64,000 bases of DNA from Minisyncoccota bacterium (lineage in GTDB: Bacteria > Patescibacteriota > Minisyncoccia > JBAYJV01). The notes below the pieces were generated by a model. It was not told the origin of the DNA and ran no database searches. It saw nothing but the letters and a program-made list of their open reading frames with translations. The first letter of the stretch is position 1, and each line of letters begins with the position of its first letter. Positions 1,155 to 50,941 of this stretch are shown here, piece by piece. Where the stretch lies: the NCBI GenBank assembly GCA_041664925.1, contig JBAYJV010000002.1, positions 136,302-200,301 on the forward strand, in the 5' to 3' direction. Both the position numbers and the translations under genes were made by a program.

Positions 1155-1262
1155 ATCCCGCACCAGAATAAATACGGTGCGGGATTATTAATTGCGTAAT
1201 TTCTTGCTCTGCTCGAAAACGCAATCAATAAAAAAGACGGGCTCCAGCGCTGTGGAGCCCGC
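1155..1262 (-). repeat. Composite structured element, copy 1 of 4: intrinsic terminator hairpin + 'TTATTGATTGCGT...ACGCAATCAATAA' hairpin + 'CCCGCACC..GGTGCGGG' hairpin
   Basis: Copies at 1155-1262, 1731-1833, 9688-9804 and 10648-10817. On the minus strand the GC hairpin is followed by a T-run. Copy 3 changes gcg/cgc to ctg/cag in the second hairpin, which preserves pairing. Confidence 0.7.
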
Positions 1263-1598
1263 TTACTGCCTTGCCAAGCTGTAGAAGATGCCGATAGAAG
1301 ACTTGGCACCCGGCGCGAGTTGAAATTGCTCGCTACCGCCCACTCAAGCGCAGTGGTCTACTAACTTGGCGGTGAGTCTGCAGCCTTCGCCACGACGGGG
1401 GAGTGTCCCTTATTCCGGCGAGAACTGTGTCAGCCGATTGATGAGTCAATAGACCCGTGCGATCGCTTACTTTTAGTACCCACGGCGATCACCAGTGCTG
1501 ACGGCGCTGCAGACCATTGATAGAGAGGCGGTGTAAGTACAACCAGTACCGTTGCGAGCGTGCACATAGCAGACCACACCGCCTCCCAAATCACATCA
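1232..1598 (-). ncRNA. GC-rich structured ncRNA candidate A (~365 nt), family unassigned
   Basis: Minus-strand -35 TTGACA (1628-1633) and -10 TATAAT (1606-1611) with a 16-nt spacer. No ORF of 60 aa or more. GC-rich in an AT-rich background. Long internal helices such as gaggcggtgt...acaccgcctc. Ends at a terminator hairpin plus T-run near 1235-1260. Confidence 0.5.
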
Positions 1599-1730
1599 TA
1601 CTCCCATTATACTCCTTTTAATTTATTTGTCAAGAGATATGGTAAATAAACTCAAAAATATTAAGTAATCCTCCTTCGCTAATCTGTTTACTGATAGATG
1701 TTTCGAGTTTATTATTATATCATAACAACA

Positions 1731-1833
1731 TCCCGCACCAGAATAAATACGGTGCGGGATTATTGATTGCGTAATTCTCGCAAACTCGAAAACGCAATCA
1801 ATAAAAAAACAGGCTTCAGCTATCTGAAACCTG
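1731..1833 (-). repeat. Composite structured element, copy 2 of 4
   Basis: Same three-hairpin architecture as 1155-1262, immediately 3' of candidate ncRNA B. Confidence 0.7.
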
Positions 1834-2005
1834 TGACTTCCAGCAGGAAGGGGTAGAGGCATAGTCATGTCTGTTCGTCCCAAGAGAGTTGACACCTCTT
1901 TTGTCGCTCTCGGAATACGCGTGCACGGAACGCGGAGAAGAGCGATTGACTACCCCTTCCTTGTCTTTTGCGGTTAGCGGTTGGCTTTATCCAGTCGCTT
2001 TATGT
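1806..2005 (-). ncRNA. GC-rich structured ncRNA candidate B (~200 nt), family unassigned
   Basis: Minus-strand -35 TTGACA (2035-2040), 16-nt spacer, -10 TAAAAT (2013-2018). An 11-bp closing helix GGAAGGGGTAG/CTACCCCTTCC encloses about 110 nt. Terminator plus T-run at about 1806-1830. ORF-track hits here (1623..1895, 1889..2098) have no RBS and cross repeats. Confidence 0.45.
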
Positions 2006-2159
2006 AATAAGCATTTTAGCAAACCCAAAAACTTTGTCAAGAGCTCTAAGAAAAAATGCCAATATTTGCGAATAAGAAATGCAAATTATCGCGAATAACT
2101 AGTAAAATCTTTGGAATTCTTCTCTCGCCTTCGGCGGATCAAAATGAAACTATAAAATA

Positions 2160-5120: not shown

Positions 5121-5267
5121 ATGAAGTGGAATCCATACGCAAACCAGATTTCCTGGCAAGCACGGCTCGCAAAGGAAACAGCCAATGAGGTATTCTGGAC
5201 ATACCTAGCCGTCTTTGCCGTAGCAGGTTCTCTGATGTTTGTACTTAGCCTCCTACTCGGAGCCTAA
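5121..5267 (+). CDS. 48-aa single-TM small protein behind a ~150-nt structured GC-rich leader
   Basis: Promoter TTGACA-17-TATAAT at about 4928-4957. RBS aaggagg then ATG at 5121. Terminator 'agagcggtctctaagagagaggccgcgcttttttt' downstream. Confidence 0.45.
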   Translation: MKWNPYANQISWQARLAKETANEVFWTYLAVFAVAGSLMFVLSLLLGA

Positions 5268-5315
5268 ACTAGCAAGACGAAAGAGCGGTCTCTAAGAGAG
5301 AGGCCGCGCTTTTTT

Positions 5316-6873: not shown

Positions 6874-6928
6874 TGAATAAAAAATAAATTTCTGGTAAAA
6901 TCAGACTGTTAATTGGTATTTTCTTAAA

Positions 6929-7492
6929 ATGAAAAAAATTTTTTCAATCTTTTGGGAATTCATACAAGTTATCGCAATCTCACTTATTATTATTATACCC
7001 GTAAGATACTATATTGTTCAACCCTTCTTTGTAAAAGGCGCCAGCATGGAAACTTCCTTTCAAGATGGAGATTATCTGATTGTTGATGAACTTTCTTACC
7101 ACTTAAGAAATCCTAAGAGAGGAGAAGTTATTGTGTTTCGTTATCCTAATGATCCGTCGCAATTCTACATAAAAAGAATCATTGGTCTTCCAGGAGAAAC
7201 AATTCAGGTAACAGATGATCAAGTTAATATTAAAAATAGCAAACATCCCGAAGGATTTAGCTTAAACGAAACTGCTTATTTAGGAGTAGGCACGACTCCA
7301 GGAAACATAACAAAAACATTGGACACTAATAGTTATTTCGTCATGGGTGATAATCGTTTTCATAGTTATGATTCGCGAGGTTGGGGAGAATTGGATGGAA
7401 AATTCATAATTGGAAAAGTTCTTTTCCGTGTTTGGCCAATAAAACAAGCAATGGCTTTCAGTTTGCCTCAATATGGTATTACTGGAAATTAG
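6929..7492 (+). CDS. lepB: Signal peptidase I
   Basis: 'GASMETSF' catalytic Ser box, 'YIKRIIGLPGE' Lys box, 'GDNRFHSYDSRGWG'. Confidence 0.85.
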   Translation: MKKIFSIFWEFIQVIAISLIIIIPVRYYIVQPFFVKGASMETSFQDGDYLIVDELSYHLRNPKRGEVIVFRYPNDPSQFYIKRIIGLPGETIQVTDDQVNIKNSKHPEGFSLNETAYLGVGTTPGNITKTLDTNSYFVMGDNRFHSYDSRGWGELDGKFIIGKVLFRVWPIKQAMAFSLPQYGITGN

Positions 7493-11851: not shown

Positions 11852-13756
11852 TTAAATTTCAATTGTGTCGACATCAATATCCCAAGAATCGGGAATTGTC
11901 ACAAGAAGATGGTTGCGTTCTTTAAGATGACTTCTTTTTACCTTGAGAATAATTGAACGATAGTAAAAACCCTTGATTTTTGGTTTTAGCGAATTCATCG
12001 GACCTAAAATTTTTATTCCTTCTGGTAATTTATTTTTTATAATCAATTGATCAAATAATTTCTTGCTTTCTTTTTCTGCTCTGATTTCATCTTTATGGCG
12101 ATATTTAAGGCTAATTATTTGCCAATACGGGGGATAGGAAAGCGCTTTTCTAAGACCCAGCTCTTTTTTATAAATATCTTCGTATTGCCCAGAATGTAAC
12201 ATCTTGAGTAATGAATCTTCCGGATTATATGTCTGAATAATGAGTTCTTTTGAAGAAAGCGCTAATTTCCTGACTAAGCGAATTATTCTTTCTTCTGTGG
12301 AAAAATCAGGAAAATTGACCAAAAGATCAAAGTTCAAAATAGAAACAAGATCAAACTCCATTTCTTGGACCCCAAAAATAATACTAGTCGCTATAAGAAT
12401 TTTTCCTTTTTTTTCGCCGATAAAGTTCTGAATAATTTTCTGTTTTTCAATGTTTGTTGGCGCAGAATTAAGATCTAAAAGATATATCGGCGTTTCAGGA
12501 AAAAAATTTGCAATCTCTTTATAAATTCTTTGGGTACCATGTCCAGAATACTTAACAAGATGACCATGGCACTTGCGGCAACCTCCAGGAGGATTTTCTT
12601 GGTGATTGCATAGATGACAAATTAATTTGTTGGCATCTCGATAATAGACTAAAGATGATTTGCAATTAGGACATTCGTAAAAATAGCCACAATCCTTGCA
12701 ATATATATAAGTAGCTAATCCTCTGCGATTTTGAAAAAGTAAAACAGTGCCATTTTTATTAAGAATATTTTTAATTTTTTCTAAAAGAACAGGGGAGAAG
12801 TAAGAAAATTTATTTCCTTGCTCCATTAACTTAATCATATCTACTATTTCTATTTTTGCGGTTTTTTCTTCAAACAATTTTGTTTTTGGAAAATATTTTT
12901 CATCCTTAATGTTTGAATATGATTCAAATGATAAAACTTTATCTGTAAATATGATTTTTGCTTTGTGAAGATCAGATAGCTTTAGCGCCACATGTTTAGC
13001 GTTGTATTTTGGATGCTGATCCCATGATTTATAAGAAAGAGAATTTTCGTCATTAACAATAATTAATTTTAAGTTTTTGAAAGGAAGAAAAACTCCCTGT
13101 CTGGTCGAGAAGATTATGACTGATTCTCCAGATAAAATCCTAAGCCAATTTTTTTTGAGCTGAGATTTTTTAATCTCGCTGTGAAAGACTAAAGTTTTTT
13201 TCTTTAGACTTTCGGGTAATTTCTCGTAAGCTTGTTCTAGTTTAATTATTTCTGGATACAGTTCTAATACTTGCCTTTCTTTCTTTATTGCGCCTAATAA
13301 TATTTTATAGTGCTGTTCGTTGTTAATATCACTATAAAATTCTTTTTTGCTTAAATCATTCTTTTTTTTGCTTTCTTTATTGTTTTTATAAAAACTTTCT
13401 TTTTTATTTAATTCTTTCAGAGGAATATTTGTAAGAATTGATTTTAAAACAATTCCTGCTGGTTCCCAATAATAAAGACTCGTCCACAAAATCAGTTCTC
13501 TTAATTTTTCGTCAATAATCTCACTAGAAACTAATATTTTCTCAATGTTTTTTAATTTGAAATTAGACTTTCTTAAATTCATTTTTGTTTGCCTTAAATC
13601 TTCTGCCTCAAACACGACTCCTGCAACCTTTCTATTTTTTAACTTAACAGAAATTAAACCTCCGAGCTCAATATTTTCTTTTGAAAAATATGTTAGAAGT
13701 TGAGGTTGATTTAAGGGAATTTTTGTTCCGGGTATGACTTTTAAAATTTTTATCAT
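11852..13756 (-). CDS. priA: Primosomal protein N' (PriA-like replication-restart helicase, divergent)
   Basis: N-terminal 3'-end binding-like domain; Cys4-rich zinc module 'CPNCKSSLVYY..CHLCNH...CRKCHGHL' typical of PriA; helicase core degenerate. Confidence 0.6.
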   Translation of the reverse strand: MIKILKVIPGTKIPLNQPQLLTYFSKENIELGGLISVKLKNRKVAGVVFEAEDLRQTKMNLRKSNFKLKNIEKILVSSEIIDEKLRELILWTSLYYWEPAGIVLKSILTNIPLKELNKKESFYKNNKESKKKNDLSKKEFYSDINNEQHYKILLGAIKKERQVLELYPEIIKLEQAYEKLPESLKKKTLVFHSEIKKSQLKKNWLRILSGESVIIFSTRQGVFLPFKNLKLIIVNDENSLSYKSWDQHPKYNAKHVALKLSDLHKAKIIFTDKVLSFESYSNIKDEKYFPKTKLFEEKTAKIEIVDMIKLMEQGNKFSYFSPVLLEKIKNILNKNGTVLLFQNRRGLATYIYCKDCGYFYECPNCKSSLVYYRDANKLICHLCNHQENPPGGCRKCHGHLVKYSGHGTQRIYKEIANFFPETPIYLLDLNSAPTNIEKQKIIQNFIGEKKGKILIATSIIFGVQEMEFDLVSILNFDLLVNFPDFSTEERIIRLVRKLALSSKELIIQTYNPEDSLLKMLHSGQYEDIYKKELGLRKALSYPPYWQIISLKYRHKDEIRAEKESKKLFDQLIIKNKLPEGIKILGPMNSLKPKIKGFYYRSIILKVKRSHLKERNHLLVTIPDSWDIDVDTIEI

Positions 13757-13842: not shown

Positions 13843-14054
13843 GGCGGAAGTGTGGTTTGGGCCCAAGGAGGGAGAACGCCAAAAACAACAACTAATGTTG
13901 GTTTTGGTATTTCGAAAGGAGGCAAACCTTCAGATACCAAGAACATGGACTACCCCAGCCCTGATGAGACCGATTTCACGCGTAACCCCCTAGGATGCGG
14001 GATCGGTCACACAAATAGGGGGAGCACATGTGCACAAAGGCAGAACGAAAACAG
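13843..14054 (+). promoter_or_regulatory. GC-rich ~210-nt structured leader (candidate cis-regulatory RNA) upstream of a small Cys-containing protein
   Basis: Promoter TTGACT(13808)-17-TAGACT(13831). No plausible ORF: the 13822..14160 frame is G/R-rich nonsense. High GC and many helices. Confidence 0.4.
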
Positions 14055-14345
14055 ATGGCTGTTTTTGTTTCTCAATGTTGCGGTGGAGAAATCTCCACAA
14101 CTTGCGCGATGGATGCCCTTAAGAAAGTCAAGGGCATTGTCGATGAAGAAGGTTCTCTAGATCCAAGGATAACAGAGGACCGTCTCATGGAAGAGGTCTG
14201 TGGTAACATCGCTCTATTCGGACTTTCTCCCAGTAATCAACAAGGAATACTCGAGTTAGCCTTGAGCGTTGAAAGATCTCTTTCTAATATGGGTATGTTT
14301 ACGCCGTACCCAGAATCGCAAGTGCTTCAACCTCAGACAAGTTAG
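14055..14345 (+). CDS. 96-aa small protein with 'SQCCGGEISTTC' motif, unknown function
   Basis: ATG in-frame in ORF 14028..14345; terminator 'agagaggtaatgagagtacctctcttttt' at about 14355-14385. Confidence 0.4.
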   Translation: MAVFVSQCCGGEISTTCAMDALKKVKGIVDEEGSLDPRITEDRLMEEVCGNIALFGLSPSNQQGILELALSVERSLSNMGMFTPYPESQVLQPQTS

Positions 14346-32407: not shown

Positions 32408-32554
32408 TAGTTCTTTAAAAAATAAATATAAGGCTCTAATACAGGCTTATGCGAAACAAAGCGTAGCCCCAGTACCAGAATTCGCTTCGCTCATTCGGTA
32501 CAGGGCGTAAGAGTTTATAAGTTTCGCTTTGCTCAACAACAAACACTAACGGAG
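32408..32554 (+). promoter_or_regulatory. Conserved structured leader, copy a (…taaggctctaatacaNgcttatgcgaaacaaagNgtagccccNgtacc agaattcgcttcgctcattc ggtacagggcgtaag…ctaacggaggtg)
   Basis: About 90% identical over roughly 110 nt to copies at 35510-35662 (+) and 47385-47510 (-); hairpin cccNgtacc/ggtacaggg; ends in a shared RBS. Confidence 0.6.
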
Positions 32555-32560
32555 GTGCGC

Positions 32561-33205
32561 ATGGAAGGCAAGGTCAGAATCGCTGTTGGCGGTTCTGCCG
32601 CCAACCCCCCTCATCTCGGACATTTGCAAGTATTGAGATTCTTGATTCATACTAAGCAATTTGACAGAATCATCTGGATACCTTGTGGATCAAGAACCGA
32701 TAAAAAAGACCTTGTTGAAGCTTCCCATCGTCTCGCGATGGTAAATCGTTTTATGGAAAGTTTCACTCACAAAGAAATGGAAGTGCTTGATGTACGAGAC
32801 GATGATGTTAGAGGAGACAACACGCCGACAATTGAATGGCTTGAAAGATTAACCAGAGAATTTCCTGATGCGGAGATCTGGTGGTTTACAGGTTCCGATT
32901 CGATTATTCCTCAGAAAAAATTCGGCGGAAAATCTGAAATTGAAGCTTGCTGGATCAGGGGAGAGGAGTTATTGCGCAATTATAACTTCTTAATTCTTGT
33001 CAGACCAGGATATCCGATTCCAAACAATCTCAAGTTTCCAGGCAACATTAAAATTGTCAACACGAATCTTGAAGATGTTTCAAGTTCGGAAACGCGCGAT
33101 CTGATCAAAGAGCAGGATAGCGCCTTTGAAAGACTTGTGCCAAAAAAAGTTGCAGAATACATAAAAGAAAACCATCTTTATGGATGGAAAGGAGATGGAA
33201 AGTGA
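32561..33205 (+). CDS. nadD: Nicotinate/nicotinamide mononucleotide adenylyltransferase (NadD-like)
   Basis: 'GGSAANPPHLGHL' (HxGH) and 'SSSETRDLI' (ISSTxxR) nucleotidyltransferase motifs. Confidence 0.75.
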   Translation: MEGKVRIAVGGSAANPPHLGHLQVLRFLIHTKQFDRIIWIPCGSRTDKKDLVEASHRLAMVNRFMESFTHKEMEVLDVRDDDVRGDNTPTIEWLERLTREFPDAEIWWFTGSDSIIPQKKFGGKSEIEACWIRGEELLRNYNFLILVRPGYPIPNNLKFPGNIKIVNTNLEDVSSSETRDLIKEQDSAFERLVPKKVAEYIKENHLYGWKGDGK

Positions 33206-42793: not shown

Positions 42794-43066
42794 ATGTATC
42801 TCGAGCTGCACGATAACGAAAAAGGCAATACTCTCTGCGCTAGGGTTAAAGATATCGAATACGATTATGTGGCTGAACAGTGGGTAATTGATACTCACAA
42901 TGATGCCAGTGCTACTAAAGTCGTCAAGTGGATTCTCTATGATGACATAGGAATTCGCTGTGTCTGGGAACGCCCTGAAGGCGACGAGTCAATGCCCAGC
43001 ATTACCCAGCGCTCTGCCCGCTTTACTGGAAAGTGGGAAAAGGGACCCGCTGAAGTTTCAATCTAA
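42794..43066 (+). CDS. Hypothetical 90-aa protein
   Basis: Promoter TTGACG-17-TATACT, RBS aaaggagg. Confidence 0.45.
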   Translation: MYLELHDNEKGNTLCARVKDIEYDYVAEQWVIDTHNDASATKVVKWILYDDIGIRCVWERPEGDESMPSITQRSARFTGKWEKGPAEVSI

Positions 43067-43254
43067 GCTACCGAAGATACATACCCAATTTACCGCCAAT
43101 ATACCAAAAGGTTGAGGCGGTTTTTTTAAAAAAAACATATAAAAAAAAGACTGCTTTTAATTTAGTGAACAATATTCTGTTTTCTTCTGCAATAAAAAAA
43201 AGAGGGGTCCGGCGTACATCATCTGCCGAACCCCTTCTACTCGTAAGCGCTAGC

Positions 43255-46680: not shown

Positions 46681-47172
46681 TTATCTCCCTTCCTTAGGAC
46701 ACGGACAAAGAGCTTTAGAAGGAGAAATAATGACCAGAACCAATAAGCGGATAAGCATTATGATACACCAGCAAACTGTTGTAAAAATATTCCAGATAAT
46801 CTTAAACCACCAACCGCCAATCGCCATGAAGAAGAGATATCGATTAATTTTTTCTTTTTGTTCTTTGTAGTATCTGCTTGATTCGTTAACTGGTAATGGC
46901 ACCAAAAAACTATCAAACCCATCGACTAACCTACTTATTGGCCATAAAAAACAGTATAAGAAACGATGCCATCTTTTTTCTCTGTCGTAATTCCAATAGA
47001 GCTTGAGGTTTAGCTTCCCAACGCAGTAACCAATATTCAGATAGATAATCGACAACGCCGGAATACTTACCTGAAGCGGGATTGCTTTCCAAAAAACAAT
47101 CACCATTGAAACTACGAGTGCCATTACCGCCAGCGCCACCCACTGCCACACCTTCTTTTTCATCCTGTGCAC
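46681..47172 (-). CDS. Integral membrane protein, unknown
   Basis: Multiple TM helices; ~340-nt composite leader upstream (47173-47515). Confidence 0.5.
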   Translation of the reverse strand: MHRMKKKVWQWVALAVMALVVSMVIVFWKAIPLQVSIPALSIIYLNIGYCVGKLNLKLYWNYDREKRWHRFLYCFLWPISRLVDGFDSFLVPLPVNESSRYYKEQKEKINRYLFFMAIGGWWFKIIWNIFTTVCWCIIMLIRLLVLVIISPSKALCPCPKEGR

Positions 47173-47384
47173 CTCCCTTAGAGATTCTTACTGAACGCTA
47201 GTGAAGTATAGAAGATCTTAGGTCCCGCCGAAGCTGAAGGCGAAGGCGGACATATTCTATACCCCCTGTAATTACTTTATGCGAAGAAGGACTACTTTTG
47301 ATTTCTTACTGAACTACGGTGAAGTTAGAAACTCTTAGGTCCCGTACCGTGCTTTGCTCTGGTACGGGACTACCTTTAACTTGT

Positions 47385-50477: not shown

Positions 50478-50744
50478 AAAAAAAGAAGGGATCAAGCCTT
50501 GCCTGATCCCTCTCCACTGATGATTGGCCGGGTTCTCACCGACACCCACTTCTCATTAAGCGCCCCGTTCCCTTGATATGCGCCGGGAACACGCTAGTAA
50601 GCTCCTCCTTTGAGGCGCGGCAGCGCATGGCTTTCGCGTTTTATCCTCAAGATCAACAGAGGCCTTTTCGGCTCTTAACCTACTTGGGACTTTTAGCGCA
50701 CGGGGACTTTGGTGCGCAGGTGTGTAAGCCACACCGCAATCATC
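50478..50744 (-). ncRNA. GC-rich structured ncRNA candidate D (~265 nt), unassigned
   Basis: Minus-strand TTGACA(50774-50779)-16-TATAAT(50752-50757). 5'/3' terminal pairing GATGATTG/CAATCATC. 'GAGAACCCGGCC' near the 3' end. Intrinsic terminator gggatcaggcaaggcttgatccc + T-run. Only a spurious ORF (50573..50836). Confidence 0.5.
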
Positions 50745-50941
50745 ATTATCTATTATACTCTTTTCTTATAATTTGTCAATGGTTTAAGATTTTTTATTAT
50801 ATCCTTTTTTTACATTTTACTTCTTTGTCATCCTGAGGTCGCCTAAAGCGACCGAAGGATCTCATGTCTTGTTTTATTAAACGCAAAAAAAAGAGTCTAA
50901 CGATTCGTCGTTAGACTCAAAACTTTTCTTGCTTTATCTTG

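Follow-up and report, generated by a model that had tools for sequence, protein, structure and literature searches.

The 64,000-nucleotide stretch analyzed here from a Minisyncoccota genome (contig JBAYJV010000002.1; hereafter, the window) carries, on its minus strand, a gene for a small RNA that is stable and highly structured. The gene is an independent one, bounded by a promoter of consensus sequence and a terminator of its own. The RNA, transcribed from position 50745 to approximately 50480, belongs to a previously undescribed family that is unmatched in Rfam 15 and common in uncultivated phage contigs; among the cellular DNA sampled, the family is present only in this Paceibacterota lineage of the Candidate Phyla Radiation (CPR). 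The best overall explanation, given a probability of roughly 0.5, is a stand-alone and probably phage-derived RNA with a tRNA-like topology that acts in trans. A preliminary description had placed a GC-rich noncoding RNA of about 265 nt at 50478-50744 and left two identities open for it, an RNase P RNA in very reduced form or some other structured RNA. The locus, the size and all of the strings quoted there are confirmed; the second of the two identities is supported, and the first is refuted by comparative structure.

An independent RNA gene

The promoter and terminator had been called canonical, and both deserve the description. The sigma-70 promoter (50752..50779, minus strand) combines a -35 hexamer TTGACA (50779-50774), a 16-nt spacer and a -10 hexamer TATAAT (50757-50752), matching the consensus at 12 of 12 positions, and the predicted start, 6-8 nt past the -10 hexamer, is the first base of the closing helix P1 or an adjoining base. 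The intrinsic terminator (50486..50512, minus strand) consists of a 12-bp stem, an AAG loop and a U8 run. Both hexamers are kept at the related loci L003-L006 and L057, and the terminator is conserved in L003 with G-U/G-C changes; the relative whose RNA is 87% identical thus keeps promoter and terminator alike. The upstream gene ends in a terminator of its own (50918-50893).

The GC content of the RNA is 55%, compared with a window average of 37.7%, and its minimum free energy of -107 kcal/mol corresponds to z = -3.6, with equally good folding in none of 200 shuffled sequences. Together with the covariation described below and the conserved transcription signals, the folding z-score and the contrast in GC content indicate that the feature exceeds chance expectation.

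Architecture of the RNA

The structured core of the window copy spans 228 nt (50518..50745, minus strand, as for all elements below), from the 5' strand of P1 through its 3' strand. Members of the family share the order P1, a single C, hairpin A, a single U, hairpin B, a variable domain, YU, GYCGG-UGAGAAY-CCGGC and the P1 3' strand. The 5' and 3' ends pair as P1, as had been supposed: UGAUGAUUG (50745-50737) joins CAAUCAUCA (50526-50518), the latter placed from the covariation alignments, with compensatory changes at 6-8 of the pairs; the innermost pair, G with an invariant C, is the same in 14/14 sequences. Hairpin A (50719..50735; GGUGUG-GCUUA-CACACC) has compensatory changes in five of its six pairs and is flanked by single-nucleotide linkers, an invariant C (50736) on its 5' side and a U (50718) on its 3' side. 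Hairpin B (50696..50717) pairs GCGCAC with GUGCGC, its outer GCG/CGC being invariant and its inner pairs covarying, and encloses a 10-nt loop, CAAAGUCCCC (50711-50702), that is conserved across 10 subtype-I members. The junction segment UAAAAGUCCCAAGUAGG (50679..50695), which carries a second AAAGUCC, is likewise conserved in subtype-I members. Its CCCA may, tentatively, pair with UGGG (50548-50545) in the G-run just before the T-stem, a pairing that is not statistically secured.

The variable domain ranges from a 4-bp hairpin in the smallest members to about 300 nt in the largest. In the window copy it includes hairpin F (50567..50590; GUUCCC-12 nt-GGGAAC), where a U-A pair is replaced by C-G and a G-C pair by G-U between the window and L003. 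It is followed by the unpaired CUUAAUGAGAAG (50549..50560), read by eye as the window version of a UAAUA(A/G)G-like motif that precedes the T-hairpin in most members. The last element before the P1 3' strand is a T-arm-like hairpin (50527..50543; GUCGG-UGAGAAC-CCGGC), with a 5-bp stem and a 7-nt loop of the T-loop type. It sits directly against P1 and, because no spacer separates the two, it probably stacks on the closing helix. As in a tRNA, a 5-bp T-stem with a 7-nt T-loop leads directly into the closing helix, and the G-C pair at the junction is invariant. UGAGAAY on its G-C closing pair takes the form of a T-loop, carrying a U, a purine and an A at positions 1, 4 and 5, respectively. Members of 83-84 nt fold as cloverleaves. 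A long-range helix proposed by RNAalifold for clade 1 (GUUAAG.GCC / GGC.CUUAAU) was discarded, being unsupported in other members and overlapping the pseudoknot described below.

Covariation and a pseudoknot

Across relatives, P1 and the two hairpins that follow it covary. Among 9 long-form sequences, 97.9% of alignment cells are paired, compared with 79.2% after shuffling and 27-37% when the partners are slid; compensatory changes occur in 15 of 26 pairs. When both subtypes are combined (14 sequences), the corresponding values are 98.8%, 76.5% and 29-36%, with 14 of 24 pairs compensatory. The T-stem is invariant except for its second pair, which is U.G in 10 sequences and C-G in 4.

Comparison of the long-form members, among them the window copy, also reveals a covarying 4-bp pseudoknot (PK1) that joins the 3' tetramer of loop B to four G-rich nucleotides some 25 nt ahead of the T-hairpin. 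The exact complement of the loop-B tetramer occurs once in the 60 nt preceding the T-stem, and this partner occupies positions -23 to -26 from the T-stem in 8 of 10 members. Such a consistent position makes chance unlikely, although the partners were picked by search rather than from a neutral alignment, MAFFT having put them in differing columns. Five covarying versions were recovered (CCCC/GGGG, CCCU/AGGG, CUCC/GGAG (twice), CCUU/AAGG and CCUC/GAGG). The window version joins CCCC at the 3' end of loop B (50702..50705), located from the covarying versions, with GGGG (50563..50566), located by the complement search across members.

Relatives and distribution

Conservation in relatives, which the preliminary description had named as a test of the element, was found in the form of structured homologues. 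Two further variants occupy the corresponding position in related Paceibacterota contigs. One of them, reached with the nearby DedA gene as anchor, is an RNA 87% identical to the window copy, in contigs whose DedA is 89% identical; the CPR loci with the RNA in this position, as recovered with nhmmer and a covariance model, are L003-L006, L028, L057 and L059. The DedA gene is useful as an anchor for the closest relative only. The RNA is absent at DedA loci with 87% identity (L007-L010) and with 73-75% identity (L191-L195), and in other Patescibacteria it is absent within +/-10 kb of the DedA marker. No paralogues were detected inside the window by blastn, nhmmer or covariance model.

In all, pattern scans yielded about 25 relatives. 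A metagenome scan with a pattern of two AAAGUCC motifs returned the third close variant (L057) and a more remote clade of longer RNAs, about 305 nt each (L023, L061 and L037); in L037, genes for a terminase large subunit and an HNH endonuclease identify the contig as a phage. The 3' motif CGGTGAGAAYCCGGCC occurs at 69 loci in IMG/VR, and at about 25 of these it is noncoding and is preceded by the same 5' architecture with the closing helix. These IMG/VR members span 66-470 nt and are recovered by a covariance model of the shared core, which also contributes tRNA-sized members (L116, 84 nt; L157 and L174, 83 nt; L124, 103 nt). Other scans were negative: BLAST of 16 concatenated members against 50,697 GenBank phages gave zero matches, the subtype-specific pattern AAAGTCCN{8,14}AAAGTCCN{1,6}AGTAGG gave only chance hits in the genome contigs of GTDB, and viral scans with CAAAGTCCCCN{5,10}AAAGTCC and with CAGGGAATGTGCCTGCG gave nothing additional. 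A phage is the most likely source of the CPR copy.

The family does not correspond to a catalogued RNA. At Rfam gathering thresholds the window and 14 loci are unmatched with respect to the family, and two tRNAs are the sole matches within the window. At E<=10, searches of five members (601 nt for the window) returned only noise; signal recognition particle RNA, 6S RNA, tmRNA and Y RNA were absent, and group I and II introns, T-box elements, riboswitches and known phage motifs were unmatched. No description of the family was found in the literature searched, including a large survey of structured phage RNAs (PMC10690425) whose supplementary models lay outside the comparison. Two other resemblances were dropped, namely that of GCUAAAAGUCCCAAGUAGGUUAAGAG to a 23S rRNA segment, for which the large-subunit rRNA model was unmatched, and that of AGAGCC-GAAAA-GGCCUCU to domain 5 of group II introns, of which the AGC is not conserved across members.

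The RNA is not RNase P

An RNase P RNA in very reduced form would have AAAGUCC as conserved region (CR) I, GAGAACCCGGCC as CR-V, and P1 closing a minimal catalytic domain. The idea draws on the resemblance of these two strings to CR-I and CR-V, on the fact that the C-run after AAAGU does join a long-range helix, on the position of some phage copies near tRNA arrays, and on the known divergence of CPR RNase P RNAs, which need lowered Rfam thresholds to be recognized (PMC8172020). In view of this divergence, a negative Rfam result was deemed insufficient and comparative structure was added. The cmscan comparison proposed in the preliminary description left every RNase P class (RF00010, RF00011, RF00373 and RF02357) unmatched at E<=10 on 600 nt.

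Both RNase P-like strings belong to other, local elements, one to the loop of hairpin B and the other to the T-hairpin. GAGAACCCGGCC supplies the loop of the T-hairpin and the 3' side of its stem, lying immediately 5' of the P1 3' strand, and in every relative it is part of a self-contained hairpin that abuts P1, with the second pair alternating between U.G and C-G; the CR-V resemblance noted earlier is thereby accounted for otherwise. The CR-I-like AAAGUCCCCGUG (50709-50698) lies within hairpin B, and AAAGUCCCC falls in the loop of this covarying hairpin, where only its CCCC pairs at long range; the partner is the G-run about 25 nt upstream of the T-hairpin and not the CR-V-like string. The earlier suspicion that P4 fails was correct, as the CR-I (AAAGUCC...) and CR-V (...GAACCCGGC) strands form no helix with each other, the latter pairing locally with GUCGG instead. 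A P4 threaded by hand (AAG[U]CCCCGU / ACGGGG[CG]CUU) fits the window copy, but only CCCC/GGGG survives in relatives, the AAG/CUU part being unconserved, and the candidate was rejected. The reported absence of the J11/12 element also stands: on reading the sequence, neither CR-II/III (J11/12-J12/13) nor CR-IV (J5/15) nor a P15 with a GGU loop could be identified. Members of 66-103 nt have no room for CR-II/III, CR-IV or P15 and contain no AAAGUCC. Finally, the phage-scattered distribution and the absence of the RNA at the same position, near DedA, in other Patescibacteria would be unusual for a universal housekeeping ribozyme present once per genome. The locus is thus not RNase P, and the probability left to the reduced-ribozyme reading is minimal.

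Genomic context of the family

No conserved neighboring protein was found by all-against-all blastp within +/-5 kb of the members, and the downstream open reading frames (ORFs) are heterogeneous, sharing neither families nor functions. A same-strand ORF nevertheless begins 8-290 nt downstream in 22 of 22 members, and at no more than 45 nt in half of them (11/22). At least 11 of the 22 have a U-run or a separate terminator 3' of P1, which defines a discrete 3' end: the U-run follows P1 directly in six (L163, L144, L137, L124, L126 and L121), and a separate terminator is present in the window copy, L003, L057, L023 and L037. Phage copies sit 0-50 nt from the upstream ORF, and promoter-like sequences occur just upstream in L155 and L121. 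According to PHROG annotation, some copies lie beside replication or recombination genes (SSB 17 nt upstream in L173, SSB in L121, Sak4 25 nt upstream in L123 and a primase in L114), with replication genes nearby in only about 5 of 18 loci. Others have stable RNAs as neighbors, being 80 nt from a tRNA-Met (L138), upstream of a 14-tRNA array (L163) or 1.7 kb from a tmRNA (L144).

For the window copy itself, no Pfam or PHROG family was found among the flanking proteins. The downstream gene differs between close relatives, encoding a 163-aa protein in the window, an orphan without relatives among 5.8 billion proteins, and a 113-aa lipoprotein-like ORF in L003.

Several of the contigs show additional features. 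The tRNA array after the RNA copy in L163 (2293-11524) includes a tRNA with a CUA anticodon, called tRNA-Pyl by ARAGORN, that may be an amber suppressor. In L144, the phage tmRNA (11616-12033, 86.8 bits) and a tRNA-Met (12534-12610) lie 1.7-2.6 kb downstream of the RNA copy. The L164 contig, which has a family member, also carries a type II hammerhead ribozyme (11936-12005, minus strand; 48.5 bits, above the gathering score). Directly upstream of the RNA copy in L162 (approximately 100-225) is a tRNA-like sequence, GGGACCGUGGCGGAAUGGUAGA...GGUUCGAGUCCUGCCGGUCCC, with a long insert, for which ARAGORN gives no call. Compared with L003, part of the conserved gene order near the RNA in L004 (7758-9058) is replaced by Fic/RhuM and GIY-YIG genes, which suggests a variable island.

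Proposed mechanism and alternative explanations

A mechanism in trans can be sketched only tentatively, at somewhat less than even odds. The RNA would act as a folded scaffold, with its closing helix on the T-arm and single-nucleotide linkers to the next two arms. The conserved surface formed by junction and T-arm would engage a factor that every host possesses, probably within its tRNA-handling or translation machinery; candidate targets are a tRNA-handling enzyme, RNase P with the RNA as its substrate, and the translation apparatus. The RNA would not itself be a catalyst of tRNA 5' processing. A trans-acting RNA is favored because the window copy has a promoter at P1 and a strong terminator, because the RNA is kept while the downstream gene is swapped, and because phages of very different GC content share the RNA without a partner gene.

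Several points weigh against a stand-alone, tRNA-like RNA that acts in trans. Its function was read solely from shape and context. An ORF that has a ribosome-binding site begins 8-45 nt after P1 in roughly half of the phage members, and the layout of promoter, RNA, terminator and ORF in the window suits a cis-regulator equally. The likeness to tRNA is imperfect: P1 spans 6-13 bp rather than a fixed 7 bp, the 3' flanks are without CCA, an anticodon-type loop is missing (there is no conserved 7-nt U33-R37 loop), and positions 2-3 of the T-loop are GA and not psi-C. Sampling with an exact pattern fixed the T-hairpin, the invariance of which is partly by design. The T-hairpin pattern was scanned in viral contigs and not in cellular genomes, and the predominance of phages may reflect this sampling. 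Some very short, GC-rich covariance-model hits (L110, L115, L128 and L130) may be false.

The main rival, although unlikely, is a cis-acting riboswitch or attenuator, in which the junction would bind a small ligand or factor and a stabilized P1, with its U-run or terminator, would halt transcription or alter access to the ribosome-binding site. The ORF downstream of all 22 members (at no more than 45 nt in 11) and the U-runs (six members) and terminators (five) that follow P1 speak for such a device, and a conserved junction core with a variable periphery and a T-loop hairpin identical to that of the adenosylcobalamin (AdoCbl) riboswitch is typical of aptamers. In L111, moreover, the P1 5' strand recurs without mismatch downstream, and the P1 3' strand can also pair with this second copy, an alternative pairing seen only in this member. 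Yet the downstream genes have no common family or function, inspection of the sequence found no antiterminator pairing with the window terminator, and the downstream ORF in the window begins 140 nt past that terminator with its own strong ribosome-binding site and a weak promoter-like site. The replacement of the downstream gene in L003, where the RNA is kept, also argues against control in cis, and in a phage genome of any kind, closely flanking ORFs are to be expected. As for L111 itself (RNA at 6906-7150, minus strand), the 13-nt P1 5' strand UUGCUCUGCUGUG is repeated exactly 5 nt past the P1 3' strand, so that the element either permits an alternative hairpin of 13 bp or is flanked by a direct repeat. 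A particular aptamer class, a divergent cobalamin-type riboswitch, is very improbable. A construct of the T. tengcongensis AdoCbl riboswitch contains the same hairpin sequence, GGUGAGAAUCC (PMC9911696), and GGGAA or GGGAAGACG motifs occur in loops of the phage members L111, L126 and L124, but five members gave no match at E<=10 to the Cobalamin, AdoCbl and AdoCbl-variant models (RF00174, RF01482 and RF01689), the sequence is without a B12 box (GCCACUG / AGYCMGG-type), the elements follow a different order with the T-hairpin last, before P1, and no B12-related genes lie downstream.

The RNA could also be a mobile or phage DNA element for nucleic-acid processing or replication rather than for contact with a host factor, an explanation that is improbable. 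It would serve as tRNA-like punctuation or a processing signal by which polycistronic transcripts are separated or stabilized, or as a structured primer or origin transcript for the replication module. A T-arm with a closing helix is the minimal shape of an RNase P or RNase Z substrate; phage copies are wedged within 0-50 nt of the upstream ORF, and several sit in replication or recombination modules (L173, L121, L123 and L114). In the window copy and two relatives, however, a dedicated promoter begins the transcript at P1, so that there is nothing upstream to process; the pseudoknot and conserved junction exceed what a processing signal needs, and replication genes are near only a minority of loci, as noted above. 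That the locus is no RNA gene at all, being a coding sequence or a chance GC-rich spacer, has a negligible probability. ORFs of 41-87 aa do overlap the region on both strands, among them a 58-aa ORF (50732-50556, minus strand), but the homologue at 87% identity differs from the window copy by indels of 1, 3 and 4 nt, which rules this ORF out. Substitutions in the helices are compensatory, gene calls are absent at the RNA locus in the source contigs, the promoter sits at the start of P1, and a ribosome-binding site is absent.

Significance

The locus is likely the first cellular example of a new and widespread class of phage-borne RNAs, defined by the stacking of a T-loop hairpin on the closing helix, by a conserved multi-helix junction and by a covarying pseudoknot, the last in the long form only. 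The class would have a new biochemical activity, either as a tRNA-shaped decoy or effector directed at a host factor of universal occurrence (in phage-host conflict, for example), or as a new class of riboswitch or ribozyme. Orphan structured RNAs of such complexity have repeatedly proved to be riboswitches, ribozymes or scaffolds of ribonucleoproteins. With its tRNA topology and no partner gene, a phage-borne RNA of this kind could take part in tRNA-centered phage-host conflict or in translation control. CPR genomes often seem to be without an RNase P RNA, and the present analysis removes a tempting mis-annotation, as the locus is not the missing gene. What had been an odd intergenic island becomes a defined RNA family with a testable fold, found in phages of many hosts and in a CPR bacterium, and a census and biochemical work can proceed directly from the covariance model and alignments built here.

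Other candidate RNAs in the window

The window contains further candidate RNAs. A second stand-alone, GC-rich candidate of about 365 nt (1232-1633, minus strand) has a promoter matching at 12 of 12 positions (1633..1606) and a terminator (1262..1237), no overlapping long ORF, and only terminator look-alikes in Rfam at E<=10. A third stand-alone candidate, of about 200 nt (1803-2040, minus strand), has an extended -10 promoter matching at 11 of 12 positions (2040..2013) and a terminator (1834..1809), and is unmatched in Rfam. Just downstream of the terminators of these two candidates is a 55-nt direct repeat (1147-1201 and 1722-1776; 96% identical) that contains the hairpin CCCGCACC...GGUGCGGG. 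Five GC-rich islands (5159-5311, 13910-14097, 32457-32633, 42898-43121 and 47100-47270), with about 50% GC against 37.7% for the window, lie outside any ORF of at least 120 aa and could be further small RNAs.

Comparison with known structured RNAs

The RNA shares several properties with bacterial RNase P RNA, in that it is GC-rich and stable, has a terminal helix that closes it, carries strings resembling CR-I and CR-V (AAAGUCC and GAGAAYCCGGC), and has a long-range helix from the C-run after AAAGU. Unlike the bacterial type (RF00010/RF00011) and the archaeal type T (RF02357), it is without P4, CR-II, CR-III and CR-IV; the family is patchy and centered on phages, its short members have no AAAGUCC, and no covariance model matches it.

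The overall topology is that of a tRNA with a long variable arm. As in tRNA, the tRNA-like domain of tmRNA, YrlA and viral tRNA-like structures, the closing helix leads into a T-arm, with equivalents of G53-C61, U54, R57 and A58 kept. The single-nucleotide linkers to the next two arms, the cloverleaf of four or five arms, the 83-84 nt length of the smallest cloverleaf-folding members and the location of some copies within phage tRNA/tmRNA clusters extend the resemblance. In contrast to tRNA, the loop of hairpin A is unconserved and pairing between D-loop and T-loop is not evident, and the G.U identity pair of tRNA-like domains is absent. The Rfam models for tRNA (RF00005), tmRNA (RF00023) and YrlA do not recognize the RNA, and ARAGORN calls neither a tRNA nor a tmRNA there; the sole sub-threshold Rfam alignment joins L157 to the T-arm and acceptor 3' strand of tmRNA_permuted (13.3 bits, E = 0.34). 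The RNA is therefore a tRNA-shaped scaffold at most, outside the tRNA, tmRNA and Y-RNA families, and not a faithful tRNA mimic.

With the cobalamin riboswitch (RF00174) and T-loop aptamers of the flavin mononucleotide (FMN) type, the family has in common a multi-helix junction, a conserved core with a variable periphery, and a closing P1 beside a terminator or U-run. The AdoCbl riboswitch hairpin (L4) with the shared sequence folds as a T-loop in crystal structures. The cobalamin and FMN aptamers differ from the family in their class signatures (such as the B12 box), in the order of their elements and in their covariance models, none of which match here, and the genes downstream of the family are mutually unrelated. 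GOLLD and ROOL, like this family, are borne by phages or prophages, sometimes beside tRNA genes, and combine an elaborate conserved structure with no associated protein gene; they are about 600-800 nt long versus 66-470 nt here, are dissimilar in sequence and structure, and their Rfam models leave the family unmatched. Set beside these systems, the RNA represents a new family assembled from known modules: a T-loop, a pseudoknot and a tRNA-like junction.

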